Positions 12,028 to 33,094 of a stretch of DNA of 64,000 nt are shown piece by piece. The stretch spans positions 60,540-124,539 of the forward strand of contig CAVSNP010000008.1 of NCBI GenBank assembly GCA_963729375.1, read 5' to 3'. The notes beneath the pieces are model-generated. The model searched no databases. It was not told the origin of the DNA and saw only the letters and a program-made list of their open reading frames with translations. How positions within the stretch are numbered: position 1 is the stretch's first letter; every line of letters begins with the position of its first letter. The translations under genes and the position numbers were made by a program. Source of the DNA: an uncultured Actinomycetes bacterium (GTDB taxonomy: Bacteria; Actinomycetota; Acidimicrobiia; IMCC26256; PALSA-610).

Positions 12028-12330
12028 TCACGTCGGATTCAGGTCGTTCGCGCAGGTGTCCCGGTCTTTGTCGCTGTTTGTCCCGTCGGGACAGGTCGTG
12101 TGCGACCAAATAGCGCCGGTGAGGTTCGCTCCGGTGAGGTTCGCTCCGGTGAGGTTCGCTCCGGTGAGGTTCGCTCCGGTGAGGTTCGCTCCGGTGAGGT
12201 TCGCTCCGGTGAGGTTCGCTCAGGTGAGGTGACATGGCTGAAGTCGAGTCCGTAGAGACTTGCGCCCGTAAGGTCGGCGCCCGGGCCGATGAGGTAGTGG
12301 TGAACGAGTGACCCCGAACTATGAATGCGC
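12028..12330 (-). pseudogene. pentapeptide-repeat protein remnant (no start, frame break and TGA before the repeat block)
   Basis: The reverse complement of the 15-bp repeat reads GGA GCG AAC CTC ACC = 'GANLT' x7. It is followed by '[29 protein letters not shown]' (stop 12028-12030), a typical actinobacterial pentapeptide-protein tail. Upstream, 'GADLTGASLYGLDFSHV' lies in another frame, and a TGA replaces the first GGA. Confidence 0.55.
12116..12230. repeat. perfect 15-bp tandem repeat x7 (ccggtgaggttcgct) plus a degenerate partial 8th unit
   Basis: Direct reading: units at 12116, 12131, 12146, 12161, 12176, 12191 and 12206, all identical. 12221-12230 'caggtgaggt' is a partial copy with one substitution. 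Confidence 0.95.
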
Positions 12331-12574
12331 TCGCACTACAACGGCATCGGAAACGTCAGGCACAGGCCGCCGCCGCGTAAATCCGGGCCTCAAGCAAGTG
12401 AACGGTGAGGCGCTCCACGTTTGAGCGCGCACCCCTGCCGACCTGAACGGACAAAAGGAGCAGCGGCGACGCCGTCCGCGCTCGATGCGATCCTCCGCCA
12501 GCTCGCTCGCGCCACCGGTAGGTTGGGCACCGCGTTGGGCACCGCGTAAGTAACCGCGTTCGGCACAACGCCCG

Positions 12575-12612
12575 GCCCTCGTAGCTCAGGGGATAGAGCA
12601 TCGGTTTCCTAA
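12575..12612 (+). repeat. exact 38-nt duplicate of the 5' half of tRNA-Arg(CCT); attL-like boundary
   Basis: 'gccctcgtagctcaggggatagagcatcggtttcctaa' is identical to 15744-15781. Flanking sequence is unrelated on both sides. Confidence 0.85.
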
Positions 12613-12803
12613 CTCTTCCGAGCCGCATTCGTCGAGGGCTGCAGACGTCCTTTTCCGCCGCCAGCCTGGGCAAACGTGTCCGCTGGTATTCGTGATCAAC
12701 CGTTGTCGTACGACAGTTGGCCGTAAGTTTGGCCGTAACGCGCCTCTCAGAAGAGCGGCAAAACGTCTGGCCCGTGCCAAACCTGCGCATCATCGAGCAG
12801 TCG

Positions 12804-13622
12804 TCACTCGCTGAGTTGCCGCGCCGTATCGAGCAGCGGCGCAAGATGGCGTCGCGTCCGACGCTCGATATCTCCGAACGGCGGCACGCCACCCGGCAAG
12901 TAGTCGCCCAGCTCGTCGTCCCATCGGTCGCGATACATAGCCATGCGCCGCTCGAACGTCGCCGACCACTCTCGAGGCGGCGTTCGCTGTCGGCCTCGCC
13001 GCTCGTCGTTCTGCGCCTTCCGCAGGTAGCGATGCCATGCGTCCAGCGCATCCACGCTGCCGTTGTCGAGTAGTTCGTGTACGTCGTAGAGGTCGCGACA
13101 CTGCAGTCGCTCGGCGATGCAGCGGACCTTCTCAGCGCTGACCTCGTCGAGGGAGTAGCCGTCAATCGCCGCGTCTGCGGGAAGGTCTGGCCACCGCGGG
13201 TGCAAGGCAATGCGAATGCGCGACTCGACTAGCTCGCTGTCGGAGATGTCGAGCTTAAGCTTGCGTGGCTTGGCGCCGAGCGGCCCGATATAGGTCACCC
13301 ATGGGGTACCACCGTCCGCGTCGGTGACCTCGAGAGCGGGCATCTCCAGCCGCTGGCGGCAGGCGTCGGTCGCTGCGGCGACGAGCGCGCGTGCCTCACC
13401 GGCGGCGAGCCCATCGACGGCAGAGAAGTCGAGGTCGGCGGAGTGCCGATAGTCTTCGAAGTAGCAAAGACGCAGAAGGGTTCCACCCTTGAACACGAGA
13501 CGCGCGTCACCAACGGCACCAATTTCGGCGCAGAGGTGGGCGAGGACGTAGTCCCGCTCGATGGTTTGCGCCGGCAGGTGCTCATCGTTCGCCCGCTGAG
13601 TGACGAGGCCCTTGGCGATCAT
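12804..13622 (-). CDS. abiEii: nucleotidyltransferase AbiEii/AbiGii-family toxin (DUF1814)
   Basis: 'ERDYVLAHLCAEIG...LVFKGGTLLRLCYFEDYRHSADLDF' is the family N-terminal NTase signature. ATG 13622 overlaps the upstream stop (ATGA, 13619-13622). Confidence 0.85.
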   Translation of the reverse strand: MIAKGLVTQRANDEHLPAQTIERDYVLAHLCAEIGAVGDARLVFKGGTLLRLCYFEDYRHSADLDFSAVDGLAAGEARALVAAATDACRQRLEMPALEVTDADGGTPWVTYIGPLGAKPRKLKLDISDSELVESRIRIALHPRWPDLPADAAIDGYSLDEVSAEKVRCIAERLQCRDLYDVHELLDNGSVDALDAWHRYLRKAQNDERRGRQRTPPREWSATFERRMAMYRDRWDDELGDYLPGGVPPFGDIERRTRRHLAPLLDTARQLSE

Positions 13623-14398
13623 GCGTCGACGACTGCTTGTAGTTCGGACGCCGGATAGGGCCACGCGACGCCCCATGTCTTGTCGACCCATCCATCTTCG
13701 TCACGCGCCCTGCGATCCAGCTCGATCAGAGTGCGCCATGCGGGCGGTTCCAAGTCCCGACCAACTGGGAGTGACAGTGTCGTCGCCAGCGATCCGATAC
13801 GGCGGTATGCCGGGTCGGCCTTGATCTGACCCGCGAGGTCGCGCAATCCGACGACGCGGTGCGCCGCAACGAGAGCCTCGGCGACACGGGCTGCGCCGCC
13901 GGCAAGCGCAGGCCGAGAGGCAACGTCGAGGAGTGCACGCTCAACCGTCGCAATACGGGAGGGGCCGAGCGGCTCGGTCCCGATAAGCACAGTCGAGCCG
14001 CCTTCCCGAATAACACGCAGCGGGCGCCCGCTCAACGCCTTCTCGCGGGGCCGATACGGACTTGCCACCTGGACGGCGCGCGCTGGCCTGACCAGCAAAC
14101 CGTGATGGTCCAAGGCCGTTAGAAAACCGATGCGGTGAGGATGCCCGACGAAGACCGCTGCAACGGCCGAACCGAGGTCGTCCCACACCGCGGCCGTACC
14201 GAGCGCGCCAATCTGGCGGACGGCATACCGCCCCGCCGCCACGCGGTCGACCAGGCCGACCGTGGTCCATCGCTTCAGCAGGTTGGAGGTGGCCTGAGGC
14301 GACGTTCCCAGCTCGTGTCGAACGTCGGCGGCGCTGAACGCCGTCCGTCCCTCGTTCGCGAATCGGTCCAGCAGCTTCAACGCTCGGTCGCTTGCCAT
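13619..14398 (-). CDS. abiEi: AbiEi-family type IV antitoxin / transcriptional regulator
   Basis: Probable start ATG 14398 (MASDRALKLL). N-terminal wHTH 'FSAADVRHELGTSPQATSNLLKRWTTVGLVDRVAAGRYAV'. Positioned immediately upstream of abiEii and translationally coupled to it. Confidence 0.8.
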   Translation of the reverse strand: MASDRALKLLDRFANEGRTAFSAADVRHELGTSPQATSNLLKRWTTVGLVDRVAAGRYAVRQIGALGTAAVWDDLGSAVAAVFVGHPHRIGFLTALDHHGLLVRPARAVQVASPYRPREKALSGRPLRVIREGGSTVLIGTEPLGPSRIATVERALLDVASRPALAGGAARVAEALVAAHRVVGLRDLAGQIKADPAYRRIGSLATTLSLPVGRDLEPPAWRTLIELDRRARDEDGWVDKTWGVAWPYPASELQAVVDA

Positions 14399-14421
14399 AG
14401 TTGGCTCCAGTTCACGACTAA

Positions 14422-14478
14422 CGTGTATCTGAGACAAGTATAGCAAGAGATAGTTGTCTAAGATGGCTTAAATACACG
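14422..14478. promoter_or_regulatory. nested inverted repeats in an AT-richer leader upstream of abiEi (candidate operator)
   Basis: cgtgtat (14422-14428) pairs with atacacg (14472-14478). tctgagacaagtat (14428-14441) pairs with atagttgtctaaga (14450-14463), 12/14 complementary. The region is clearly less GC-rich than its surroundings. Confidence 0.4.
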
Positions 14479-14598
14479 CTAGACATGTATCACCGCCCAC
14501 TGCGACAACTAGCGCCCGTCGTGTCCAGACAGGCCCTCCAGCGACGCGAAGCCTTCGGCGGACAGCGCCGCGGTTGTCTCAACCGGTCACGTCCGTGC

Positions 14599-15700
14599 TC
14601 ATACAGCGCGAAGGTGCCTCGGCTCGGCTGAAGTCGTGCTTGTCAGCCACTCGCTCAGCTCGTCGCCGCCGGCCTTCATATACCGCATCGTGGTATGCAC
14701 GTTCGCGTGGTTCAACAGATTGCTTGCAATTGGTAACGGCACTCCGGCGCGCAGCAGGTTCGTCGCGCAGCTATGGCGCAGCTGGTGCGGGGCAATGTGC
14801 GGGCCGTTCACCGACCTCGTCATACGGTCGAGCCAATGGTTCAAGTGTTGTGGGTCGAGCTGGTCCGCTTCGCGAAGCGATGCTGCGACCGAACGTCGTG
14901 GTCTTCCGAGATCGGACCAGCCAATCAGAACATGTCGCCGTCGCGTGCATCGGCCCGCTCAGCGAGGAGAGGCCATAGTCGCTCGGCAGCGAGGTGTGGC
15001 AGGCGCTGCTCGAAAGTGTCCAGCATCGTCCCGATCGGAAGCGTGTCCTCACCACCGCCCTTGCGGACGAAGTTGAGCAGCTTGCGTTCACTGACGTCGA
15101 CGTTTCGTACCCGCAGCCTGGTGATCTCTTCGCGACGCAGGCCACCGAAGAACGCGAGGCCGAGCACAACTGCGTCGGCGCCGTTCAGCGCGTCCCAGAG
15201 TTTGGAGAAAGTCGTGTCCGACACCGGCCGAGGCTGGCGGTTGTGAAGCGTCGGAGTGCAAACGAGGTTCGCCGGGTTGTCGCGGACCGCGCCGATTGCT
15301 TGAAGCCAGCCGTAGAAGCCGCGCATGGTCGACGCGTCTCGGTGCAGCGTCGCGGGTGAGGCGTCGCGGGTGAGGCGATGCGACCGTGCGCTCGACCCCT
15401 TCGGAGACGTTGCAGCCATGCTTCGATTTCGGCCGTGGTGATCTGCTCGAGTCGGCGATCCTGCACGCACTCATCGACGAACGACATACACAGCCTTCGG
15501 TACATCGCGACGGTCTTCGGCGCGAGTGCCTTGGACACGGTCAGGTATTTCAACCACTCCCCAACCAGCGATACTGTCGTCGTCCGTTCCGTCGCCTTGG
15601 TCGGTCGCTCCGATGGGTGGGGATAGAAGGAAGGTTCTCTCCCCGACTCGTCTCGGCAGGTCACAGCCCTAAACACAATCGAAGGAGCGCGCAGGATCAC
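14599..15700 (-). pseudogene. tyrosine recombinase/integrase (XerC/D-like), at least 3 frameshifts
   Basis: N-terminal SAM-like part 'VGEWLKYLTVSKALAPKTVAMYRRL...ITTAEIEAWLQ' (ORF 15185-15700). Middle 'FYGWLQAIGAVRDNPANLV...GLRREEITRLRVRNVD' (ORF 14925-15470). C-terminus 'HQLRHSCATNLLRAGVPLPIASNLLNHANVHTTMRY' (ORF 14599-14844). A short connecting piece lies in the third frame. Confidence 0.75.
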
Positions 15701-15743
15701 TCCCGTTCGTTCTCTCCTCCGCCTACAACCCAGGCGGATACAG

Positions 15744-15816
15744 GCCCTCGTAGCTCAGGGGATAGAGCATCGGTTTCCTAAACCGTGTGCCGCAGGTTCG
15801 AATCCTGCCGAGGGCG
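15744..15816 (+). tRNA. tRNA-Arg (anticodon CCT)
   Basis: Hand-folded cloverleaf. Acceptor GCCCTCG/CGAGGGC. D arm GCTC-AGGGGATA-GAGC. Anticodon arm TCGGT-TTCCTAA-ACCGT (one terminal mismatch). T arm GCAGG-TTCGAAT-CCTGC. Discriminator G. No encoded CCA. Confidence 0.9.
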
Positions 15817-15917
15817 CTCTCTGACCAGGGGTTATGGACTCCAACGGGCTCCAAAGACCCGCGGGAATGGCGAATTGCCCATCCACTTGCCCATCTTTTT
15901 CGCGCCAGACTGTCGCG

Positions 15918-16864
15918 ATGCAGAGGTCGCTTCGACAGCGCGGGCAACGATCGTGGGAACTGCGCGTGCTCAACGGTCCGGTCGCGACGCGCTCACCGGT
16001 CGCAAGACCTACCTGCAGAAAAAGGGTGCACGGAACCAAGCGCGAAGCCGCGACCGAGCTCGCGCGGTTCGTCACTGAAGTCGGAGACGGCGCGCACGCA
16101 TCGACGAAAGGTTCAACGGTCGGCGAGTTGCTCGAACAGTGGTTCAGCTACAACGAAGACGACTGGTCCCCCACCGTCGTCCACACATATCGGCGGATCA
16201 TCGACCGCCACCTGATTCCGCGCTTCGGTCGTACGCCGCTTCGCCGTCTCACGACGGTCGACATCGATCTGTTCTACGCGCAGCTTCGCAAACGCGGTGG
16301 AGCAAAGGGCGGGCCACTCTCGCCGGCATCTGTGAAGCGCGTGCACGCCGTGTTGCGACGCGCGCTCACGCAATCTGTGAAGTGGGGCATGCTCACGATC
16401 AACCCCGCAGTGAACGCGTCGCCACCGCGGGAGCCCCGCCATGAAATCTCACCACCTGATCCTGCCGACGTCGCGGGGCTCATCGCGTACGCCGATGAGC
16501 ATGACCGTCCGCTCGGCTGCTTCCTTCGTCTCGCGGCGACGTCGGGCGCGCGGCTGGGAGAGTTGTGCGCGTTGCGCTGGAAGCATCTCGATCTCGAGAA
16601 GGGCGCCCTGTTCATCGAACGATCGATCGTCGAGAACGGTAAGGGTGAACTTGTCGAGAAGGACGCCAAGACCCACGAGGCGCGCCGGATGCGACGATGC
16701 TGCTTTCGGGCGGCAAGGACGTGAAGACGGTGAGCGGCCGTCTCGGTCACGCGCACGCGGGAACGACCCTCGGCATATACGCCCACTTCATCGAAGCTGC
16801 AGATGCTGACGCGGCCGACCACCTCGGGACAATCATCGACGCCGCATCGAGTAGCCGTCACTGA
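15918..16864 (+). pseudogene. phage-type tyrosine integrase with two frameshifts and an internal deletion of the catalytic core
   Basis: 'MQRSLRQRGQRSWELRV' (frame 0), then 'SGRDALTGRKTYLQKK' (frame 2), then 'VHGTKREAATELARFV...LGELCALRWKHLDL...EKDAKTHEARR'. It then jumps at ~16688 to a frame-2 tail, 'ATMLLSGGKDVKTVSGRLGHAHAGTTLGIYAH...*' (stop 16862-16864). The segment normally lying between is missing. Confidence 0.75.
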
Positions 16865-17080
16865 GAGTACGCCGGCGAAATGGCAGCCGGGGTCCGCTAT
16901 GCGGACCTGATCGCCTGCCGCGTACCCATCTACGCTCGAACCCCGATGCCGCACTCGCGATTGTTGTCTGACCCAGATCGACTGAGATACCCGTTTTGCC
17001 GTGTTCGGTGCGCGTTCTGGGGCGCGCGTGTTGCTCGGATCTCCGTGCCTTCGACGAGGACCGAACGGTTATGGCGCGGC

Positions 17081-17431
17081 TCAGTCTGTGGCGGTCCTTT
17101 CGAACTCGGCTACGAGCTTCGTGGGCGCGCGGAGTCGCCAGGAATCGGTGAGCAGCTCCCGAAGCTCCCTGGTCCCGATCGCGTCGAACCGAACAAGAAC
17201 TGTCGGATGTCCGTCGTAGTGCGAGGTTGTGAAGAATTTCTGGGGCTCCGACTTGACCATCGCGAGCTTCTCGGCTTCGTCCGACACCCACACGACAAGG
17301 GCATCGCCTTCCGGTCGAATACGAGCAAACAACTTGTCGCGCACGCGGAAGCCCGGCGTGCCGTACGAGGGCTTCTCGATCGTCGCCGGTAGCGACAACG
17401 CAACCCGACGGACATTGTCCTCGGTGATCAC
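17081..17431 (-). CDS. MmcQ/YjbR-family DNA-binding protein
   Basis: 116 aa: 'VRRVALSLPATIEKPSYGTPGFRVRDKLFARI...HYDGHPTVLVRFDAI', typical of the YjbR fold family. Confidence 0.8.
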   Translation of the reverse strand: MITEDNVRRVALSLPATIEKPSYGTPGFRVRDKLFARIRPEGDALVVWVSDEAEKLAMVKSEPQKFFTTSHYDGHPTVLVRFDAIGTRELRELLTDSWRLRAPTKLVAEFERTATD

Positions 17432-17437
17432 CGCAGC

Positions 17438-17872
17438 TCAACCAGCGGGCAGGATCGGTCGGCTCCTGCGTGCAGGGTCACTCGCGCTCATGATCCCCAC
17501 TGCGTTGCCGTCAGGGTCTGCGACGATGGCATAGCGAGCACCCCAAAACGCGTCGTACGGTGCCTGTTGACCGTGGTAGCCAGCGGACGAGAGGCGCTTG
17601 TAGAGCTCATCGACCGTCGCGCGCTCCACGACACGGAACCCGATGACCGTGCCGTTCGCACTGGCTGGCCAGCCTTGATTCCACTGACGAGCGAAGGCCT
17701 GGCTATCAAGGTCGATGTCGAAACCGCCCGGAACACACGCCTTGCGATGGTGCTCCGTCCACCCCGGATCGCTGTCGGCGATGTCCATGCCCAGCACCCG
17801 GTAGAACTCAATCATGGCGGCCATGTCGCGCACCACAACGTTGATCTGATCGAACGTGGGCCGATCCGACAT
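17438..17872 (-). CDS. VOC/glyoxalase-family protein
   Basis: Likely start ATG 17872 (MSDRPTFDQINVVVRDMAAMIEFY). C-terminal 'ARYAIVADPDGNAVGIMS' is the typical VOC beta-alpha-beta motif. Confidence 0.8.
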   Translation of the reverse strand: MSDRPTFDQINVVVRDMAAMIEFYRVLGMDIADSDPGWTEHHRKACVPGGFDIDLDSQAFARQWNQGWPASANGTVIGFRVVERATVDELYKRLSSAGYHGQQAPYDAFWGARYAIVADPDGNAVGIMSASDPARRSRPILPAG

Positions 17873-18175
17873 CTGCTCAGAATGCCCGGCAGGGGCGCCG
17901 TCTGCCAAAAGAGGCGAGGGACTCAGAAAGACGGCTCGGCAGAGCCCCAGAAAGCGGACCCCGAATCTCGCGCCGAGACTGTCACTCATCGCCGGCACCG
18001 GGCGTTCGCGGATTGTGTCCTACTTGCCCATCAGCCGCCGTCTACGCCGGCACCGATGGGCTCGAGTTATGAGCGCGTGTTCTGCTCGGTTCTGGGTTCG
18101 GAACGCGCGCGCTCAGGGGACATATGTGCGCGTCTGTGGGGCGGCCAACGGGGCGAACGGGCCGGCGGCATCGGA

Positions 18176-18589
18176 CTAGCGAAGTGGAGGTCGTTCGGCT
18201 TCTCGGGATGCCTCGCGGAGTGCGGCTAACGCACACAGGTCAAGGGCGACGGCGGGCGATGCGATCAATGAGGAGACGAGACCGCGTGCGCCGGTCGTGC
18301 GTGTGCTCGCTAACCCTGCACCGACATCCAAGACATCGCTCAATAGCCCCGCTGCGATCCACCGCCGCAACTCGCGCGTCGATCCCGCGCGAAGAGCGCT
18401 CACGGTCCCGTATCCGAGCGCGAGGTCGCGAATGCCGACGGTCCGCATCAGCAACGTCATCGAGGAGCCCGGCGGGATGTTGTTTTCCCAACGCAGGAAC
18501 CTGGTCGGTGATCCTCCCAATGCGAGCCCAGCGCAGAGTCGTACGCCTCCGATGGCCATGACCGCGACACGCAGTCGTCGCCTGCTCAT
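18176..18589 (-). CDS. hypothetical membrane protein
   Basis: ORF 18176-18634; possible start at 18589 (MSRRRLRVAVMAIGG). Hydrophobic segments present; no family recognised. Confidence 0.4.
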   Translation of the reverse strand: MSRRRLRVAVMAIGGVRLCAGLALGGSPTRFLRWENNIPPGSSMTLLMRTVGIRDLALGYGTVSALRAGSTRELRRWIAAGLLSDVLDVGAGLASTRTTGARGLVSSLIASPAVALDLCALAALREASREAERPPLR

Positions 18590-18750
18590 CGTCGGCGTCC
18601 CGACGCTGACTTGTGGGACCCATGCCAGCCACAAAACGCGAACAACGGATCAGGTTCCATCTCGACAGGTTGCCCGCTCCGACGATGTTCGTGCGAGCGC
18701 GAATCGGCAGACCGGTGGGGAGACCTCTGGGAAGGACCGACACGGCGGAG

Positions 18751-19281
18751 TCAATTGGCACCGAAACGGGCGACGTACTCCAACGCGAAGCCGTGCCGAT
18801 CGATCAAGCTGTATCCGACGGTCTCGAACAACGGTGACAGCCGGCTCAAGGCGATGAAGTCGCTGTCTCGACGGGTCTCGGCGACGGTCACGGTCGCGTC
18901 GCGTCGGCAGATCCGACGAATCTCGTGGACGCATGCCTGCTGATCCGGGACTTCGCCGAGCACAGCCACGAGCAGCACCGCGTCAAAGGACTCGGCTGCG
19001 AAAGGTAACGACAGCGCGTCGCCCTGAACGGCTGAGACGTTCGTGGCGTCTGCAGTGCGTCGTCGAGCGAAACTCAGCATCGCGGCTTGGAGATCGCACA
19101 GGACCAGCGAGCCCTTCGAGACCGCGCTCGCCAGATCGACGCTGAAGTAGCCGGGGCCGGAGCCGATCTCGAGGACTCGCATCGTCGGCGCCAGGCACAT
19201 CTGGCGCACGACGCGACGTGGCGGCTGCAACAAGCGCCGCGCGGGATTGAGAAGCTGGCGGGCCTTCGACGCCGGGTACAC
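18751..19281 (-). CDS. class I SAM-dependent methyltransferase
   Basis: 'MRVLEIGSGPGYFSVDLA' (motif I), 'VSAVQGDALSLPF', 'FDAVLLVAVLGEV'. GTG start; the N-terminus is uncertain. Confidence 0.8.
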   Translation of the reverse strand: MYPASKARQLLNPARRLLQPPRRVVRQMCLAPTMRVLEIGSGPGYFSVDLASAVSKGSLVLCDLQAAMLSFARRRTADATNVSAVQGDALSLPFAAESFDAVLLVAVLGEVPDQQACVHEIRRICRRDATVTVAETRRDSDFIALSRLSPLFETVGYSLIDRHGFALEYVARFGAN

Positions 19282-19454
19282 CTTGCCGCGTTCGAGGCCG
19301 ACCGATCTGTCGAGTCGCTGCGCGTCATCTATCGATCCACACGGGTGTCGTCACATCGTCATGCTGGCACGACTCGTTGGGTGTCGGGTTGTGCTTGCCG
19401 GGCTGTGATGCATACCTTTGGTTCTGGTTGTTTTACTGAGGTGGGGGCAGTGCG

Positions 19455-21560
19455 GTGAGACTGTCGATTGGTCGGCGTTTTCGTGCGCGGGGCGGGTGGC
19501 CGGTGTCGGGCCTGGTCGCGGCGGGGCTGGTTGCGGCGGTTGTGGTGCCAGTGTCGTTGGGTGTGACGGCGATTGCGGCGTCGGCGGGGGTGCCGAACCC
19601 GGTCGTGACGGGTCCTATTACTGCGAGTTGTAACCCGAAGTGTCCGGTCCTTCTGGGTTTGGCGTCGGGGATCCATACGCCGCCTGAGTTCGACGGGCAG
19701 ACCGTTTCATCCGATCTTGCTGCGCATGGGTACACGGAGCACGAGTATTTCTTTTCCGGGATAGCGAGCGCGTTCGAACGTGACCCGGCGGCGTCGGCGT
19801 GGGACGCGACGGGTTACTGGACGGCCGAGCCGAGTACGACGATCCCGCCCGCCGCGTATAAGAGCCGCATGCTGGTGATCGAGCCGTCGAATCCTGCAAT
19901 GTTCAGCGGGACGGTTGTGGTCGAGTGGCTGAACGTGAGCGTGGGGTTCGATGTCCCGGTCGATTACGGGTACGCACATGATGAGTTGCTGCGTAGCGGC
20001 GACATCTATGTGGGGGTGTCGGCGCAGGCGGTCGGCATAAACGGTGGTGCGCCGTTACCCGGGTTGGGTCTCAAGTCGTACGACCCAGTGCGCTACGGGA
20101 GTCTCGTGCACCCGGGCGACAACTATTCGTACGACATCTTTTCGCAGGCCGCCCAGGCCATCCGGAGTCCGGTTGGTGTCAACCCGCTGGGTAGTAGTGC
20201 GTACGTCGTGCACAAGATGATCGCCGATGGCGAGTCGCAGTCCGCGGGGCGGATGGTGACCTATATCAACGCGATCCAACCACTCGCGCACGAGTTCGAC
20301 GGTTTCTTCGTCCACAGCCGTTTTTCGTCGGCCGTCGATCTGTTTTCGCCCGGCGGAGCGGTCCCGGCTAACGCGCAGATCCGTACCGACCAGGTCCCGG
20401 TCATGGTGTTCGAGACCGAAACCGACACGGTGCCGAACTTCTCGGCACGTCAGCCTGACAGCACGAACTACCGGCTGTGGGAAGCAGCTGGGACCGCGCA
20501 CGTCGACGGGCAAAGCGAAGCGTTCATCTACACGTATCTCATCAACCAGATCCCGTCGTTAGCGTCGGCGCCTTTGGGCTGCAGCGTTGCGCTCAACGCA
20601 GCGAATGAGCGCTACCTCGTAGACGCGGCGTACTCGCAACTCCAAAGCTGGGTGAACGTCGGGACCCTGCCCAACAGTCCGCCGCCGATCGACGTAGTGG
20701 GCGGTGTGATCCAACGTGATGCGTTCGGCATCGCCAAGGGCGGGATCCGATTGCCGGAGATCGATGTCCCAACCCAGGTGACGTCGGGAGTGGGGAACAC
20801 GCCCGGTCTCTTCTGCTCCTTGTTCGGGACGACGAAACCGCTCCCCGTCCCGTTAAGTTCGCTCTACCCGAACCACGCCGCGTACGTCTCGGCATTCACC
20901 GCGGCGACGAACGCGCAACTGGCGGCCGGGTACCTGCTTGCCCCCGACGCCGCACAAGAAATCGCGAACGCGACGATCTCTTCCCCACCGACCGTTCCGC
21001 TGTCAGTATCAGCCTTCGGTGGGAACGGGACGGTTCGGGTGTCGTTCTCGACACCAGCAAATGATGGCGCGAGCGCGCTCCTGACCTACACGGCGTCATG
21101 CGCGTCGCCCAACGGCGGAACAACACGCACCCAAACCGGACCATCGAGTCCGTTCCCAGGAACAAGTTCTCTCGTCGTCGCCGGATTGACGAATGGGAAA
21201 TCGTACCGGTGCACCGTCAGCGCCCAAAACGCGCTCGGGACCAGCCCCGCATCGAAGGCGACCAGCGCGCTCACGGTCGGCGCACCCGGCCAGCCAGCGA
21301 AACCTACGGCGACCACGACAACAGCAGGATCGCTGAAAGTCACGTTCACCGCGCCCGCAAGTAACGGCGCCAAGATCACGAGCTACACCACGACCTGCAC
21401 CTCATCAAACGGGGGCCTCACGAAGGCCACGACCGGCACCAGCAGTCCAATCACCGTGACCGGCCTCACCGCCGGCAAGACCTACACGTGCACGGTGAAC
21501 GCCATCAATACCCGCGGCACCGGACCAACCTCCAGCCCGTCACCAGCCACCACCGCATAG
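19455..21560 (+). CDS. secreted alpha/beta-hydrolase-like protein with C-terminal tandem FN3 domains
   Basis: Signal/anchor 'GLVAAGLVAAVVVPVSLGVTAIAASAG'. ~480-aa catalytic-like domain with a 'ADGESQSAG' nucleophile-elbow-like motif. Two FN3-like modules (20985-21557) are joined by 'TVGAPGQPAKP'. Confidence 0.8.
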   Translation: MRLSIGRRFRARGGWPVSGLVAAGLVAAVVVPVSLGVTAIAASAGVPNPVVTGPITASCNPKCPVLLGLASGIHTPPEFDGQTVSSDLAAHGYTEHEYFFSGIASAFERDPAASAWDATGYWTAEPSTTIPPAAYKSRMLVIEPSNPAMFSGTVVVEWLNVSVGFDVPVDYGYAHDELLRSGDIYVGVSAQAVGINGGAPLPGLGLKSYDPVRYGSLVHPGDNYSYDIFSQAAQAIRSPVGVNPLGSSAYVVHKMIADGESQSAGRMVTYINAIQPLAHEFDGFFVHSRFSSAVDLFSPGGAVPANAQIRTDQVPVMVFETETDTVPNFSARQPDSTNYRLWEAAGTAHVDGQSEAFIYTYLINQIPSLASAPLGCSVALNAANERYLVDAAYSQLQSWVNVGTLPNSPPPIDVVGGVIQRDAFGIAKGGIRLPEIDVPTQVTSGVGNTPGLFCSLFGTTKPLPVPLSSLYPNHAAYVSAFTAATNAQLAAGYLLAPDAAQEIANATISSPPTVPLSVSAFGGNGTVRVSFSTPANDGASALLTYTASCASPNGGTTRTQTGPSSPFPGTSSLVVAGLTNGKSYRCTVSAQNALGTSPASKATSALTVGAPGQPAKPTATTTTAGSLKVTFTAPASNGAKITSYTTTCTSSNGGLTKATTGTSSPITVTGLTAGKTYTCTVNAINTRGTGPTSSPSPATTA

Positions 21561-21582
21561 CCAACGAATCTCACGGGCGCGG

Positions 21583-21915
21583 ACGATTCACTCCGCTCGT
21601 CAGCGCCCGAGTTCCAGCGCTCGCCGACCGAGCTGCGGCGCCTCGTCGGCCAAACCTCGGCCGGCATGATCCGGATCCTGAAGAAGCTCGGCGGCCGCGG
21701 TCTCGTGCACCGTCGACCCAGCACGAGGACGGCCGCGGACAAGACGTCATCCTCACCCGCCGCGGCACGGCGCTTGCTGAGGAATCATTCCGAGCGCTAC
21801 ACGCCATCCAACAACAAATCGTCGCTCCCGTTGCCGGCGATGAGCGGCAGCAGCTGATCACGGCGCTTGACGAACTACGGGCCGCACTCAGTCAAATCAT
21901 CGACCGACCAGAAAG
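21583..21915 (+). pseudogene. MarR-family regulator fragment (5'-truncated, frameshifted, no proper stop)
   Basis: 'SPTELRRLVGQTSAGMIRILKKLGGRGLVHRRPS' continues in another frame as 'EDGRGQDVILTRRGTALAEESFRALHAIQQQIVAPV...LDELRAALSQII' (shift ~21722). The N-terminal helices are missing. Confidence 0.55.
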
Positions 21916-22003
21916 CCTGACATCTGGTCGGCTGTTTGTCGCGCGTGTTCGGGAGACGCGCTCGGACTCTTGCGCGAAGGACCGTCGAGCTCGACGTGCC
22001 GTG

Positions 22004-23095
22004 TCACCCGGTGAGGGGGTGAGCCAAGAAGAATTTCCACATGATCTGGTTGGCGGAGATGGAGAAGGTGGTCTTGCCGACGTAGCTCGCGATTGCTTGG
22101 GAGAAGGTGCTGCCGGGCCATGCGTGGCCGCCGCCGGTGATGCGGTATAGCTCGACGTTCGCGTCCGGCGGACACGCCCAGGTAAGGAGCGTTACGTCGC
22201 TCGCGATCGTGGTTTGGGTCGGTAGCTGGGTCGAGCACCGGTTGCGCTTTGCCCAGCTGGCGGTGATGTCGGGGATGGATGGGCCTTTGTTGAGCTCCGC
22301 CTTGGCTGCGCCTTCTTGCCCGAGTGTCTTGTGTGAACCGTCGGCTGCCGGGAGATCGAGTGCCTTGGGTCCGAGCCCGCCGGTGTAGGAGACGTAGGGA
22401 TCGGCTGTCCCGTGGAAGGTCACCACTGGGACCGGGCGTGTGGGTGCACATCCCTTGATGTCTTGGATGCCGGCAACGGGAGCGACCGCGGCGACCCGAT
22501 TGGAATACGCGCACGCGACGGCGGACGTCATGAAGGCGCCGTTCGAGAGTCCGGCGACGTAGACGCGTCGATCGTCGACGCACAGGGTGCGATCGATCTC
22601 GTTGAGTAGGTTGCCGATGAAGGCGATATCGGCGCCTTTGAGATCGGTGTTCCACATGGGGACGGTCGTGCCGCTTCCCTCAGGCGTGATCGTGATGAAT
22701 CGGTGTGTGTCGCCGTACGGTCCGATAGCCGACATCTTCGTCTGGATCGTCGCGCCTTCCGCGTAACCGTGCAGATCGACGATGACGGGCAGCGGCGTTC
22801 GACCGTTGTACGCAGGCGGCACGTTCCTGATGTACCAGCGGGGTGTCCCGTTTGATGTCGTGTCGACCCGTGTCTGGCCGGGCTTCACGACGGGTGCGCG
22901 GCAGCCGGTCGAGGGTTTCGCCGCGACGACGGTTGCGGTGTCTATCGTCGTGGATGTTGGCACTTGCGAGGACACAGATGTCGTTGGAGACGAGCTGCTG
23001 GTTCCTCCGCTCGAGCACGCGGCTGCGGACACGAGCATGAGCGCGACGGCAGTCGCCGCGAGCGTGTGTCCGCGTATCAGCGTCAATCGTGTCAT
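22004..23095 (-). CDS. lipoprotein, PHB-depolymerase-family esterase (LpqC-like)
   Basis: Likely ATG 23095. Lipobox 'LMLVSAAAC'. 'PLPVIVDLHGY', 'VYVAGLSNGAFMTS' (GxSxG) and 'VTFHGTADPYV' are present. Confidence 0.8.
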   Translation of the reverse strand: MTRLTLIRGHTLAATAVALMLVSAAACSSGGTSSSSPTTSVSSQVPTSTTIDTATVVAAKPSTGCRAPVVKPGQTRVDTTSNGTPRWYIRNVPPAYNGRTPLPVIVDLHGYAEGATIQTKMSAIGPYGDTHRFITITPEGSGTTVPMWNTDLKGADIAFIGNLLNEIDRTLCVDDRRVYVAGLSNGAFMTSAVACAYSNRVAAVAPVAGIQDIKGCAPTRPVPVVTFHGTADPYVSYTGGLGPKALDLPAADGSHKTLGQEGAAKAELNKGPSIPDITASWAKRNRCSTQLPTQTTIASDVTLLTWACPPDANVELYRITGGGHAWPGSTFSQAIASYVGKTTFSISANQIMWKFFLAHPLTG

Positions 23096-23422
23096 TTCAA
23101 CCTCTTGATCGAGTTGTGGGGCGAGCTCAGAGATGGATCGGAACGTGTGAGGGGCCGTTCGAGTACTTCGACAAACCGCATCGACGCGACCTCGAGGTCG
23201 GCGGTAGGTCGAAGCTCCTCTGCACGGTAGGTCTGCCTCGTCGGTGCGAGTCAACTCAGAGTCGCAATCGGGCTCTCGTCTCGGACATCACCCCGGGCAG
23301 GCCGAGATCTCGTGAACAAACGACGCTCTTCACCAGAACTGCGAACCTTCCGGCGTCTCGGTCGGCCTCGGCTGCTAGGGCCGCCCCGCACGTACCAGCG
23401 CAGCGCACGGAACCCATCCGAG

Positions 23423-23728
23423 TCAGATCGCGACGCCTTCGGGCGTTACGGCAATGTGGAACTCGATGCCGAGCACGCTCGAGAGCCGAGCGAGCGTATC
23501 GAAGGACGGGTTATGTTCGCCAGCTTCGAGGCGCGCGACGGCGGGCTGCTTCATTCCGAGCTTCCGCGCCAGCGCAGTTTGTGAGAGCTCGTGCTCGGCG
23601 CGGTACTCGACCAGGCGCACCGCGACGGCACGCGCGACCACGGTGCGCTCCCACTCCGCTCGAACGGCTGGGTGCTTGAGTTGGCGCGCGCTGACCTTGT
23701 CGCTCCCGCGCATGCTTTGCAGTTTCAC
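23423..23728 (-). CDS. XRE-family HTH antitoxin (HigA-like)
   Basis: 'ELSQTALARKLGMKQPAVARLEAGEHNPSFDTLARLSSVLG'. Lies 13 nt downstream of the toxin-like ORF. Confidence 0.8.
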   Translation of the reverse strand: MKLQSMRGSDKVSARQLKHPAVRAEWERTVVARAVAVRLVEYRAEHELSQTALARKLGMKQPAVARLEAGEHNPSFDTLARLSSVLGIEFHIAVTPEGVAI

Positions 23729-23741
23729 GTCGTGAACCTCC

Positions 23742-24068
23742 TCACTCTTCGATCTCGTCGAACCGTCTCGTCGCGGCGGCTACCGCTCGACGAAATCCGC
23801 GTGCCTTGACCGGCGCTTCCAGACCGACGTCCGCGATCACGAACGCGTCGCCCACACGTCCGTACAACGGGCGCCATTGACTCCGACCGCCTCGTGGGGG
23901 CAGCTCGCGCAGCCCCTCCGCGCCTGTCGCGCTGCTCTGGTGCGGGAACGGCAATGCCGCGCCCGCCGCCACGAGCTACTCGACGGCGTGCATCACCGCG
24001 ACTCGTTCGTTCGCCGGTAGCGCATCGAGCTCGGCCTCTACTTCGGGGTGGAGCGCCACCGTCCACAC
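23742..24068 (-). pseudogene. RelE/ParE-superfamily (HigB / Gp49-like) toxin with in-frame TAG
   Basis: Hand translation from GTG 24068: 'VWTVALHPEVEAELDALPANERVAVMHAVE*LVAAGAALPFPHQSSATGAEGLRELPPRGGRSQWRPLYGRVGDAFVIADVGLEAPVKARGFRRAVAAATRRFDEIEE'. The stop is at 23976-23978. Confidence 0.65.
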
Positions 24069-24077
24069 CTCAGAACT

Positions 24078-24093
24078 ATAACACATATGTTAT
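24078..24093. promoter_or_regulatory. inverted repeat ATAACA-N4-TGTTAT in the AT-rich leader of the TA operon (candidate operator)
   Basis: ataaca (24078-24083), cata, tgttat (24088-24093), immediately upstream of the toxin start. The local sequence is strikingly AT-rich for this window. Confidence 0.35.
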
Positions 24094-24283
24094 CGATGTC
24101 GGGGGCTCATCGAATCTCGCGTTTGATGCTCACTGAATTTCGCGTTGGTTGAGGGTGTGTTCCTCCTGGCCGGGGTCCACCGGTCAGCGCCGACAATCGA
24201 TTCGGTAGGATCACAACTCGATCCCGACGTCGAGACTTGGTCGACGGGTTGAGCGCGTTGTTTGGTTTCGAGTTCGTGTAGGT

Positions 24284-24323
24284 CTGCACCGCACGCAGGT
24301 CTGTACCGCACCCCTGTACCGCA
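24284..24323 (+). repeat. three direct copies of CTG(C/T)ACCGCA
   Basis: ctgcaccgca at 24284-24293, ctgtaccgca at 24301-24310 and ctgtaccgca at 24314-24323, about 60-100 bp from the tRNA-like fragment. Confidence 0.6.
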
Positions 24324-24326
24324 TGC

Positions 24327-24359
24327 CTGCGCAGATGTCCGCGGAGGACATCTGCGCAG
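24327..24359. other. perfect 14-bp stem / 5-nt loop hairpin
   Basis: ctgcgcagatgtcc (24327-24340), loop gcgga, ggacatctgcgcag (24346-24359). Only a weak T-run (ttt) follows on the + strand, so it is not a clear intrinsic terminator. Confidence 0.6.
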
Positions 24360-24383
24360 CGCTTTCCGCTTCGGCCGCGCGGC

Positions 24384-24419
24384 GTGTGTCGCATGTTCGA
24401 ATCATGCCGGGGTCGCTCT
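24384..24419 (+). repeat. tRNA 3'-end-like fragment (T arm + 3' acceptor strand); attR-like
   Basis: 'gtgtgtcgcatgttcgaatcatgccggggtcgctct' against tRNA-Arg 15785-15820 'gtgtgccgcaggttcgaatcctgccgagggcgctct' is 31/36 identical. No D arm, anticodon arm or complementary 5' acceptor lies upstream. Confidence 0.5.
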
Positions 24420-30502: not shown

Positions 30503-33094
30503 CTACGCGATCAGTGGAGACGATTGCGCCGAGGGTTGCCCGGTCCCCCGTCGGTTGGTCGCTCGGACATTGCACGAATATGTCCTGCTCCGCGTCAGAC
30601 CCGAGACGCCGAGCGGACCCGCGCGGCCGGTCTTGCCCCGCGCGACCCCGCCATTCGATGATGCACACACGGCCTTGAAGCTCGTGAGCGGAGCGCCGTT
30701 GCCGGCAGGGTTCGTGAACGAGACCTTGACATGCCCTGTGCCGATTCGAGAGACCACGGGCTTCGCGGGCTGACCGGGCGCGCCGACCGTCACTGACGCT
30801 GACATGGCCGAAGGCGGGCTCGTCCCGCGTGCATTCGTCGCGGTCGTCGTGCAACGGTAACGCTTCTTGGTCGTGACTCCGTTCACGTCGACGGGAGCGG
30901 CAATGGCGGCGTCGAGCACTGCTCGTTCGGTCGCGCCGCCGTCGTTCGACGCACAGGTCACCGTGAACGCCGTGATCGGGGCGCCGTTGTCTTCGCCGGA
31001 AGCGAACACGACGGTGAGGCTCCCAGAACCGTGCTCGGTCGCGTCCGAGACGGCATGCACGGCCGATGGGGCCGCCGGCGCGCTGGATTGACACAGATCG
31101 GTCGCGAGCGTCGCGCCGTGCGGCGTTCCAAGCCCGTCGGCCATGTCGTATCCAATGGTCGCGGGATATGCGCCGTTGTTCGTACCGGGGACGTCGTTGT
31201 CGGGCGGCGTTCCGATGTCCGCCCCGCTCGCAGCCGTGACATCGTAAAAGTCGGCTGGGTGCTGGACCGCGTCCGCGTACAGGATCGGGTCGGCGAACCC
31301 GACCGGACTGACACCGACCGACTGGCATCGCGCGTCAACGAGTGCGAGCACTCCTGCCCAGAGTGGAGCCGCGGCGGACGTTCCCCCGTTCAGCGACCAG
31401 CCGCCAAGCTGATCGGTGTCATAGAGCAGGTACGGATAGCGGTTGTAGTCGGCGCTTGCTGACACGTCCGGGACTTCGCGTCCGAGGTTCGGATACTCGG
31501 GGTTGTCAACCCCAGGGCCGTTCTGCCACGTTGGCCTCGGCGAGAGGATCGACACACCTCCGCCTCCACCGGCGCAACTGTCGTCAACCGTCCCGTCCGA
31601 ACAGCCATCGTTCCAGGCGCCCTCCTCGGCGGGAACGGTTGTGCCGACCGACGCGAGATACTGCGATGCGAACGCGATGTTTTCCGTGCCGCCGACACCT
31701 GTCACCCACGGGCTCGACGCCGGATTGCTCACGTACAGCGACGTGATCGCATTGTCGGTGCGGATGCACCCGGCGGATCCGGTGTCGCCGGCCGCCGCGA
31801 GGATCGATTGGCCTTGGGTCGCGGCCTCCTCGAAGAGGATGTTCTGGGCGGAGACGAAGCTCGGGTCGTCCGCGACGTAACGCTCGCACAGAGCCCAGCT
31901 GACGCTCACGACCTGGGCGGTGTCGTCACTGATAATCCGATTCCAGATGTCGAGCTGATTCTGGTCTGTCGCACTCGACACGTCAGGTCCCTGATACACG
32001 TCGACGACCGCCGCGGGAGCGGTCCCGATCACAGTTTCGATATCAAGTTCGGACTCGGCAACGCTGCGGTAGTCGGAGAGATAGCCCGCGCCCGGACCTC
32101 CGTCGACGTTCACGGTGTTCACCATCGCGTTCGTCCCGTAACAACCCTGGAAGCCGACAATGTCCGAGGGCGTGTATCCGCCAACTTCATACAAGGCCAC
32201 GGTGACTCCAGCTCCAATGTCGCCACTCGCGTACAGCGACGACAAGCCGTAAGAAGAGTCGAGCACGGTGTCGGAGTTCGGATACACGTGGTCAGACGCG
32301 GCGTCCGTGTTGGCCAGTGTCTTCACCGTTGCGCACGCCGTCGCGCCGGTGTCGGCCGATGTGACACGTGGAACCGACGCAGCAGAACCGTGAGCGACCA
32401 GCCTGGCCCCGGTTTCGCTCGCCGTCGTCAACGGACGCGCGAGCGATCGCGGCTGCATGACATTCGTCAGCCCGACGATCCCTTGGACGTTGCCGATGAG
32501 GCTTCCGGGGACGACTGCGACGTTCGACGTGGTGTAGGCATCCGGCTTGTCGGCGATTGAAACATGGCGCAACCCCACATGAAAGGCGCGTTGTACAGCC
32601 TCGACAGTCCCCGAAACCGGGATGACCAGCCGGTTCGTGCTCGGCGGACCCGGTTCAAGCCCGAGCGACCGAAGCGCGCGATCGACCGTGTCGATATCGC
32701 TCGATGTCGCGCCAAACTCGCTCGCGAACTCGTCGCGCGTCAGGTACTGCCGGTCGCGCGACGAACCGGGAGTCGATACGGCTCCCGCAAGCCGCGCAAG
32801 ACCAACCGGGTCACGCGGCCGCAACACTACGTCGACGTCGAGCCGCTCCGACGCGGCGAGCGGAGCACCAAAGCTCGCGCCTGGCGGAAGCGGCGGCGCG
32901 ACGACCGCGTCGACCTCAGCGGTCGTCGCCGATGCCGTGGTCGTCGGTATTCCGGCTCCCAGTTCCAACACCACGATCAACGACACAGCCAACCATGACC
33001 GCGGCCGCCTCCGAACGGTCCTCAACCTCGCGACCACTGTTTGGACCCCCACGAAGCCCCCCGCTCCCGCTCGGCAAACCGGCCGTTGCACCAC
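30503..33094 (-). CDS. S53 (sedolisin/kumamolisin-like) serine peptidase with pro-domain and C-terminal tandem FN3
   Basis: Pro-kumamolisin-type activation region 'RDRQYLTRDEFASEFGATSSDIDTVDRALRSLGL'. Catalytic 'SELDIETV', 'ILAAAGDTGSAGC' and 'GGTSAAAPLWAGVLAL'. Two FN3 modules (30503-31072) joined by 'TVGAPGQPAKP'. Confidence 0.85.
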   Translation of the reverse strand: MVQRPVCRAGAGGFVGVQTVVARLRTVRRRPRSWLAVSLIVVLELGAGIPTTTASATTAEVDAVVAPPLPPGASFGAPLAASERLDVDVVLRPRDPVGLARLAGAVSTPGSSRDRQYLTRDEFASEFGATSSDIDTVDRALRSLGLEPGPPSTNRLVIPVSGTVEAVQRAFHVGLRHVSIADKPDAYTTSNVAVVPGSLIGNVQGIVGLTNVMQPRSLARPLTTASETGARLVAHGSAASVPRVTSADTGATACATVKTLANTDAASDHVYPNSDTVLDSSYGLSSLYASGDIGAGVTVALYEVGGYTPSDIVGFQGCYGTNAMVNTVNVDGGPGAGYLSDYRSVAESELDIETVIGTAPAAVVDVYQGPDVSSATDQNQLDIWNRIISDDTAQVVSVSWALCERYVADDPSFVSAQNILFEEAATQGQSILAAAGDTGSAGCIRTDNAITSLYVSNPASSPWVTGVGGTENIAFASQYLASVGTTVPAEEGAWNDGCSDGTVDDSCAGGGGGVSILSPRPTWQNGPGVDNPEYPNLGREVPDVSASADYNRYPYLLYDTDQLGGWSLNGGTSAAAPLWAGVLALVDARCQSVGVSPVGFADPILYADAVQHPADFYDVTAASGADIGTPPDNDVPGTNNGAYPATIGYDMADGLGTPHGATLATDLCQSSAPAAPSAVHAVSDATEHGSGSLTVVFASGEDNGAPITAFTVTCASNDGGATERAVLDAAIAAPVDVNGVTTKKRYRCTTTATNARGTSPPSAMSASVTVGAPGQPAKPVVSRIGTGHVKVSFTNPAGNGAPLTSFKAVCASSNGGVARGKTGRAGPLGVSGLTRSRTYSCNVRATNRRGTGQPSAQSSPLIA

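Follow-up and report, generated by a model that had tools for sequence, protein, structure and literature searches.

A probable remnant of a small AbiE-carrying integrative element that duplicates the 5' half of a tRNA-Arg(CCT) gene

Layout of the tRNA-Arg(CCT) locus

The subject of this work is a tRNA-Arg(CCT) gene, together with the DNA on both of its sides, in a 64-kb stretch from an uncultured bacterium of the class Acidimicrobiia (contig CAVSNP010000008.1, positions 60,540 to 124,539), hereafter called the window. The gene is preceded by a copy of its own 5' half and followed, farther downstream, by a fragment of its 3' half. The interval between the 5' copy and the intact gene, termed E1 (12613-15743), contains an abiE gene pair and a broken tyrosine integrase gene, int1, and it is the nature and origin of E1 that we address here. 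The interval on the other side of the tRNA is termed E2. The following features are found along this part of the window (att, attachment site; attP, attachment site of the incoming element).

12574-12612, + strand: displaced, dead 5' half of tRNA-Arg(CCT) (nt -1 to 38), the distal att junction of E1, still preceded by the native upstream flank
12613-12803: distal arm of E1, attP-derived and far from the integrase gene, with tandem TTGGCCGTAA repeats at 12717-12726 and 12729-12738
13622 to 12804, - strand: abiEii, intact, 272 amino acids, predicted nucleotidyltransferase toxin (Pfam PF08843, E = 2e-28; PADLOC AbiEii, E = 3e-42)
14398 to 13619, - strand: abiEi, intact, 259 amino acids, predicted antitoxin/repressor (PF09407 AbiEi_1 plus a MarR-like helix-turn-helix; PADLOC AbiEi, E = 1e-26)
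14599-15598, - strand: int1, tyrosine integrase pseudogene with a SAM_1-type core-binding and a catalytic domain (Pfam matches on three frame pieces)
15599-15743: intergenic spacer of 145 nt between int1 and the tRNA gene, element-supplied and conserved with int1 in other contigs
15744-15817, + strand: intact tRNA-Arg(CCT) (ARAGORN; Rfam, 65.5 bits), nt 1-38 of which form the int1-proximal att copy of E1
15818-24382: E2, a conventional island (Pfam), with the decayed int2 directly 3' of the tRNA
15834-16864, + strand: int2 pseudogene of SAM_3 type, with about 223-229 nt missing from its interior near 16690
24383-24416, + strand: displaced 3' fragment of tRNA-Arg(CCT) (nt 41-74, 29/34 identical), the distal att junction of E2

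The dead 5' half and the intact gene share an exact direct repeat of 39 nt (12574-12612 and 15743-15781; repeat-to-repeat distance 3,169 bp), which is one base longer than the 38-nt identity (12575-12612 and 15744-15781) claimed in the original prediction that drew attention to this locus. The repeat extends from tRNA nt -1 to nt 38, its last base being the 3' edge of the anticodon loop TTCCTAA. As had also been claimed, identity stops abruptly at both ends, the sequences outside the two copies being unrelated on either side. When up to three mismatches were allowed, a search of the 64-kb window returned only these two copies and 100 shuffles returned none. The left copy received no tRNA call from ARAGORN and scored 23.9 bits with Rfam, under the gathering score. 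It was considered whether this copy is a degenerate whole tRNA whose tail ends in CGAGGGC, and this was dropped because alignment with other genomes shows the tail to be a conserved element arm. The left junction of the window is shared with two other loci, L125 and L190. In the terms used by Islander for islands in tRNA genes (tDNAs), a full-length tDNA is accompanied by a fragment in the same orientation (the exact nt 1-38 copy at 12575-12612, + strand), tRNA nt 1 (strictly, nt -1) is the start of the fragment, which lies 3.17 kb upstream of the tDNA, and the length falls inside the 2-200 kb range.

AbiE is an abortive-infection and type IV toxin-antitoxin system in which AbiEi serves as antitoxin and repressor and AbiEii as a GTP-specific nucleotidyltransferase, as in the systems of Streptococcus agalactiae and Lactococcus. 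E1 has the same organization: AbiEi and AbiEii are adjacent in one two-gene operon with the antitoxin gene first, the stop codon of abiEi overlaps the start codon of abiEii as ATGA, and both proteins give strong matches to the family models. The setting is a different one, namely an uncultured soil/peat actinobacterium, and the function is predicted from sequence. The overlap and the Pfam and PADLOC matches confirm the content originally proposed for the island, a tyrosine recombinase abutting the tRNA and an intact, coupled abiEi/abiEii pair. In comparison with L125 and L190, the ratio of nonsynonymous to synonymous substitution rates (dN/dS) was 0.15-0.18 for abiEii, and it was 0.07-0.12 for abiEi. 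By this sequence measure (dN/dS 0.07-0.18), the predicted abiE pair is under purifying selection. Exact-protein look-ups were made for AbiEi and an RCC1-like protein of the window, and neither is on record. Within abiEi (HRIGFLTA), a 16-nt inverted near-copy (15/16) of the core GCATCGGTTTCCTAAC is present at 14118-14133 on the - strand; it is probably a chance occurrence, since about one such pair is expected among the inverted repeats of the region.

E2, situated 3' of the tRNA, carries genes for a YjbR protein, a glyoxalase, a methyltransferase, a secreted alpha/beta-hydrolase (Abhydrolase_10) with fn3 domains and an esterase (Pfam). The deletion in int2 is seen by comparison with L124 and with a contig of the public run X1; an intact int2 homologue of 394 amino acids stands beside the same tRNA in L004/L124, and a further homologue is present in L057. 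A search of the window for a 26-nt repeat of the tRNA 3' end with up to three mismatches found none, and a permissive blastn-short search then gave the fragment at 24383-24416 (E = 0.003 in the 64-kb window), 8.6 kb downstream of the tRNA on the same strand. This fragment has a compensatory T-stem variant, GCATG/CATGC, and the same variant occurs in the intact tRNA of L057. Taken from the sequence, the locus would read: native promoter, dead 5' half, E1, tRNA, E2, dead 3' fragment. Because E1 lies upstream and E2 downstream, both flanks of the working tRNA are element DNA.

The decayed integrase gene int1

The int1 gene diverges from the intact tRNA gene, the gap being 145 nt. When read through its lesions it has intact relatives at 84-86% identity, and it carries the invariant tyrosine-recombinase columns R..K..HxxR..H..Y that are common to 23 homologues. 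The lesions were called base by base against the intact int1 of L125, which is 96% identical. The frame is disrupted twice, by a tandem duplication of 14 nt at 15347-15360 and by the loss of 1 nt after 14928, and the start codon, ATG in L125 and in the homologues P0001 and P0002, is AAG in the window (15596-15598). The claim of at least three frameshifts therefore had to be corrected: there are only two, which together with the lost start codon make three inactivating lesions. Contigs of four public runs (X1-X3, X5) have the L125 state at one or both indel sites. L190/L191 carry a different 1-nt insertion in int1, and since this frameshift is independent of the lesions in the window, int1 decayed more than once. 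Frame-corrected int1 gave a dN/dS of about 0.3, based on small counts.

Intact int1 homologues scored 106-114 bits with the XerC model TIGR02224 (cut-off 335), 89-99 bits with the XerD model TIGR02225 (cut-off 330) and 60 bits with the integron-integrase model (cut-off 265). In the sense of Islander, the interval holds a tyrosine recombinase that is neither of the Xer nor of the integron type, in the window as a pseudogene. Among the phage and plasmid records searched, int1-type relatives were all less than 29% identical. One further locus, L189 (P0031), has an int fragment 85% similar to int1 and no tRNA-Arg, and is uninformative.

Arms of E1 and the spacer upstream of the tRNA

The distal arm directly behind the dead 5' half aligns with arms behind 5' halves in L125, L001 (two copies), L018, L057, L014, L111, L114 and L082, and the arm with its tandem TTGGCCGTAA repeats is conserved at ten junctions in different genomes. 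In each arm, a tandem TTGGCCGT(A/C)A pair (TTGGC(C/T)GT(A/C)A) is located about 105 nt from the core. The tandem arm repeats are putative arm-type integrase-binding sites.

The 145-nt spacer is kept alongside int1 in L003, L004/L124, L125 and L190 and is unlike the sequence upstream of the dead half. Because it travels with the integrase and not with the chromosome, the upstream region of the intact tRNA is element DNA, which supports the earlier claim that the region upstream of the working gene was supplied by the element. With int1 pointing away from the tRNA, the promoter of the tRNA would have to lie in this spacer, which on the other strand would also hold the promoter of int1. A candidate is the -10-like TACAAC at 15724-15729, 14 nt before tRNA nt 1; TACAAC or TACAGT is found at the identical 14-nt spacing in L124, L125 and the phage contig L126 (TACAGT in the phage).

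The junctions next to int1 have peculiarities of their own in two relatives. In L190 (9342-9390) there is a tandem 9-nt duplication, GGCCCTCGT GGCCCTCGT, at the int1-proximal junction, and in L125 (1975-1990) only GCCCTCGT is kept there, followed by unrelated DNA with a GCAGGTCA motif. Another agent may have acted at tRNA position 8-9 in these cases. Directly behind several tRNA 3' ends (L129, L141) the motif CTGACCTGCGGAAAC is found, the window having CTGACCAGG at 15818-15832, and the related GCAGGTCA/GACCTGC motif recurs in element arms. Actinobacterial elements that integrate into tRNA genes may have this end sequence in common.

Relatives of E1 and a phage attachment site

The whole island is present at 96% DNA identity, with int1 uninterrupted, on the metagenome contig L125 and at 95-96% identity in L190/L191. 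More distant members of the family keep the layout and change the cargo. Relatives of int1 are divergent to tRNA genes located 120-210 nt away, the targets being Arg-CCT (L124, L132, L003), Arg-TCT (L129, L131) and Val-TAC (L141), and others adjoin bare 5' halves (L126, L130, L140). The AbiE pair is found in the window, L125 and L190, and two WS/DGAT acyltransferases plus an AMP-binding enzyme are found in L124. In L001 (11063-15751), an element with a 71%-related int1, the cargo is an operon of four genes, the first of which encodes an SMC/AAA_15 ATPase with matches to PADLOC mad3 (5e-24) and LmuB (4e-18); the three partner proteins match no family, and the operon is possibly an uncharacterised defence system.

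Elements of this type also occur in arrays. In L001, a distance of 9.5 kb separates two 5' halves, and no complete tRNA is present within 21 kb. At the place where the window has the intact tRNA, L190 shows a further 5' half behind E1, with a second arm 82% similar to that of E1. This array indicates that a sibling element entered the tRNA beside E1 in the L190 lineage and not in that of the window.

Evidence on the attachment site comes from the phage contig L126 (IMG/VR L176, listed as viral). It encodes an integrase 55% identical to P0002, followed by a 45-nt spacer and tRNA-Arg(CCT) nt 1-33. This site is flanked by a terminase gene on one side and by genes for a DNA methyltransferase, a DnaB-like helicase and a primase on the other, and is the free (unintegrated) attP of a temperate phage that holds the 5' part of the tRNA. 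Sizes in the family lie between 9.5 kb for an island (L001) and 30 kb for a phage (L126). Together, the family layout, the variable cargo, the arrays, the conserved arm and the phage attP bear out the view on which the original prediction was built, that E1 is an integrative island duplicating the 5' half of a tRNA gene.

The same findings leave hardly any room for a local duplication or gene conversion of the tRNA 5' half next to an unrelated Xer-type recombinase. Source databases do name several homologues of int1 'XerC/XerD', and the closest relatives of E1 share the left flank of the window. However, int1-type proteins reach no more than 106-114 bits against the XerC cut-off of 335, the boundary of the repeat falls on the anticodon loop, arms of the same sequence stand behind 5' halves in many genomes, and a phage attP and variable cargo belong to the family.

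It was likewise considered whether E1 and E2 are parts of a single composite element (12613-24382) that was inserted once in the anticodon region and carried its own complete tRNA-Arg(CCT) between two integrases. Such an insertion would have divided the native tRNA into a 5' half on the left and a 3' part on the right, much as certain phages disrupt the tRNA of their host and supply a substitute. The two tRNA fragments are near-exactly complementary (12575-12612 corresponds to nt 1-38 and 24383-24416 to nt 41-74), int2, the tRNA and int1 occur together again in L004/L124, and tRNA-dependent lysogeny has been described (PMC10865867). On the other hand, L003 has int1 and the tRNA without int2, L125 and L190 have a complete E1 without E2, E1-type units in L001 and L190 have a 5' half at either end and enclose neither a full tRNA nor int2, and phage L126 carries only nt 1-33 beside its integrase gene. 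Because E1 and E2 occur separately and E1-type units are bounded by 5' halves, we reject the composite element as very improbable.

Not all relatives of int1 are of the 5' type. In distant ones (32-39% identity; L133, L134, L178-L187), a co-directional tRNA 3' fragment lies upstream of the integrase gene. Integrases of the 5' type and of the 3' type cluster apart from each other in a neighbour-joining tree, a separation that is only indicative because no bootstrap was made.

Dead 5' halves in other genomes

One genome per species was scanned for copies of the 5' half in which the next base is not A, the base found there in the intact tRNA. Dead tRNA-Arg(CCT) 5' halves cut at the anticodon loop were found in at least 119 species-level genomes (loci L005-L123). 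Among the matches listed, none of the 121 5'-half copies overlaps an ARAGORN tRNA; the taxa are Micromonospora (dozens), Plantactinospora, Actinoplanes, Pseudonocardiaceae, Acidimicrobiia, Planctomycetota and a metagenome-assembled genome of Chloroflexia; and there are several arm families, about six matches having the E1-type arm. About 35-45 of the Micromonosporaceae loci among these matches share one arm family, with GACCTGC 30-31 nt past the loop. The cargo downstream differs by genome and includes a vWA/PP2C/kinase triad, a helicase and insertion sequence elements. A tblastn search with int1 found almost no integrases in the 119 loci L005-L123, each of which covers only 8 kb around the distal junction.

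In a few of these loci, namely L063 (612-2560), L067 (2621-5460) and L043 (2623-4450), the 5' half lies 1.7-2.8 kb from an intact tRNA-Arg(CCT). The L063 interval holds an AbiEii-like toxin-antitoxin pair; that of L067 holds a pair which we take from the translations to be DUF433/PIN-like, and that of L043 a gene presumably for a DUF4143-type ATPase. The repeat of L063 reaches about 70 nt upstream of the tRNA and includes a TAGACT -10-like box.

Proposed history of E1

We consider it very probable that E1 is the immobilised remnant of a small integrative element whose attP contained the 5' part of the tRNA and was recombined with the tRNA gene of the chromosome. According to this proposal, the integrase of E1 (12613-15743) would have recombined an attP with tRNA-Arg(CCT) nt -1 to 38 with the resident gene, strand exchange most likely taking place in the anticodon loop. 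The end of the identity block, located at the 3' edge of the loop in the window and at loop position 33 in L126, is consistent with a crossover within the loop. Because attP carries the 5' part and not the 3' part, the native promoter would have been left before the dead 5' half (12574-12612), and the working gene would have been rebuilt by joining element DNA, that is spacer and 5' half, to the resident 3' half. An element of this kind must bring a tRNA promoter, since the upstream part is element-derived, and would probably do so in the 145-nt spacer shared with int1. Later, int1 was killed by its three lesions, and with int1 dead the island is fixed in place. The dead E2 occupies the other side of the tRNA, so that both native halves of the gene survive only as fragments. 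The order of the two integrations, the promoter, the function of the arm sites and the exact point of crossover are what we infer in this account.

Several observations weigh against the proposal. The eight public runs (X1-X8) were examined as assembled contigs, and no empty site of E1 was found in them or in any fetched locus. No excised-circle junction was seen in these contigs, which is weak evidence because contigs drop rare forms. Mobility has indirect support in the sibling element that L190 has at the same tRNA and the window lacks, in the arrays and in the free attP of L126. L125 and L190 share the left flank of the window, and for this reason they show inheritance of E1 and not independent insertion. 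The GC content of the island is the same as that of its surroundings, and within the 3.2 kb of E1 there are no excisionase or transfer genes. A scan of 12300-16000 with the sigma-70 consensus found no promoter, the spacer included, and the -10-like TACAAC lacks the usual final T. Finally, in L043, L057, L063 and L067 a 5' half and an intact tRNA are 1.7-5.7 kb apart with toxin-antitoxin or ATPase cargo and no integrase between them. Relatives with the repeated block and no mobile genes between the copies were named in the original prediction as evidence against an island; they do exist in these four loci and are better read as products of decay. We regard such integrase-less intervals as eroded islands because L057 keeps an element-type arm.

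All joints seen in the run contigs were short and ambiguous and lay within tRNA-like sequence, such as that from 12614 to 15749 with a 20-nt side. A joint from 15768 to 24388 turned out to involve a different Arg tRNA. L003 was examined as an empty-site reference and set aside; it shares PhyH and FKBP genes with the window and is rearranged.

E1 could also be what deletions left of a bigger element (a larger island, or a prophage similar to L126), of which only the integrase end, the far arm and an addictive AbiE pair were retained. E1 has no excisionase, replication or transfer genes, family members range from the 9.5-kb island to the 30-kb phage, toxin-antitoxin modules resist loss, and the inserts in L043, L057, L063 and L067 show that such islands erode. 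Against this, at least three other assemblies have these 3.2 kb at 95-96% identity, one of them with an intact int1, and both arms are kept. The small form is therefore old and may itself have been the transferred unit. We consider a larger ancestor possible, if on the unlikely side; it would be a variant of the remnant proposal and does not contradict it.

A further-reaching idea, which we hold to be quite doubtful, is that the int1 clade is one lineage stemming from a single flip of attP at the near-palindromic anticodon stem-loop, after which the element obligatorily carried a tRNA promoter back-to-back with the promoter of the integrase gene. If this were true, the targeted tRNA of each host, here the AGG-decoding tRNA-Arg(CCU), would be transcribed under element control, and after occupation from the 5' and the 3' side the whole tRNA gene and both flanks would be foreign. 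If the 145-nt spacer coupled expression of the tRNA to that of the integrase, the supply of a rare-codon tRNA could be adjusted by the element to suit its own state.

Comparison with known tRNA-targeting elements

Conventional tRNA-targeting elements, such as phages and elements of the integrative and conjugative type including those of actinomycetes (ICE/AICE), duplicate the 3' part of the tRNA gene. A tDNA island with 'reversed target orientation' was reportedly described by Zhao and Williams in 2002. E1 resembles the conventional 3'-type elements in having the integrase gene beside att, in an identity block that restores the tRNA and in the use of the anticodon stem-loop. It differs in that its attP holds the other half of the gene and would thus supply upstream sequences including the promoter, and not the 3' end and terminator. 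E2 and the 3'-type relatives of int1 (L133, L134, L178-L187) belong to the conventional 3'-duplicating type.

In Islander, 159 of 3,919 tDNA islands have a 5' tDNA fragment, which is about 4%, and 2,083 islands have an anticodon-centred site, class 'A' (PMC4383910). The rarity originally claimed for duplication of the 5' portion is correct in the light of these numbers, though the layout had already been documented. The Islander 5'-fragment islands resemble E1 in having an intact tRNA, an upstream same-strand fragment of its 5' end and a tyrosine integrase between the two, and also in the anticodon-centred att site (class 'A') and in tandem arrays. There is no difference in kind; E1 is decayed, very small (3.2 kb) and carries the AbiE pair only. 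In a paper on mobile genetic elements of Thaumarchaeota, 5'-distal recombination is called 'considerably less frequent', with reference to Zhao & Williams 2002 and archaeal cases (PMC6563490). Known elements in another domain of life likewise duplicate the 5' part of a tRNA, with integrase families different from that of E1. Mycobacteriophages with tRNA-dependent lysogeny resemble E1 in that integration into a tRNA gene affects the tRNA supply of the host; these phages reportedly destroy the host tRNA and a separate phage tRNA compensates for the loss (PMC10865867), whereas the attP of E1 would itself rebuild the gene.

Hence insertion of the 5' type is already catalogued, and E1 is a clean example of it and not a new kind of element. 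What the present analysis adds is the 5' orientation at the level of a clade, a phage attP, the occupation of one tRNA from both sides and the frequency of dead 5' halves. The locus shows a tRNA gene whose flanks both come from mobile DNA, as its two halves probably do too, and it shows an abortive-infection module kept by selection after the death of the integrase. With an intact integrase in L125, an attP that can be reconstructed together with candidate arm sites, the phage attP and the 145-nt spacer, a minority, 'reversed' mode of integration would become tractable to experiment. It also carries a warning for annotation, as islands at the 5' ends of tRNA genes, or 5' tRNA stubs, are easily missed.

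Additional observations

Two tRNA-His(GTG) calls by ARAGORN are of unusual length, one in the window (32994-33086, 93 nt) and one in L003 (4691-4780, 90 nt). Between lepB and the dead tRNA half, about 8-9 tandem copies of the 15-nt unit GGTGAGGTTCGCTCC are present at 12083-12245. This array yields repetitive open reading frames on both strands (SEPHR / GEVRS) and has no evident function.

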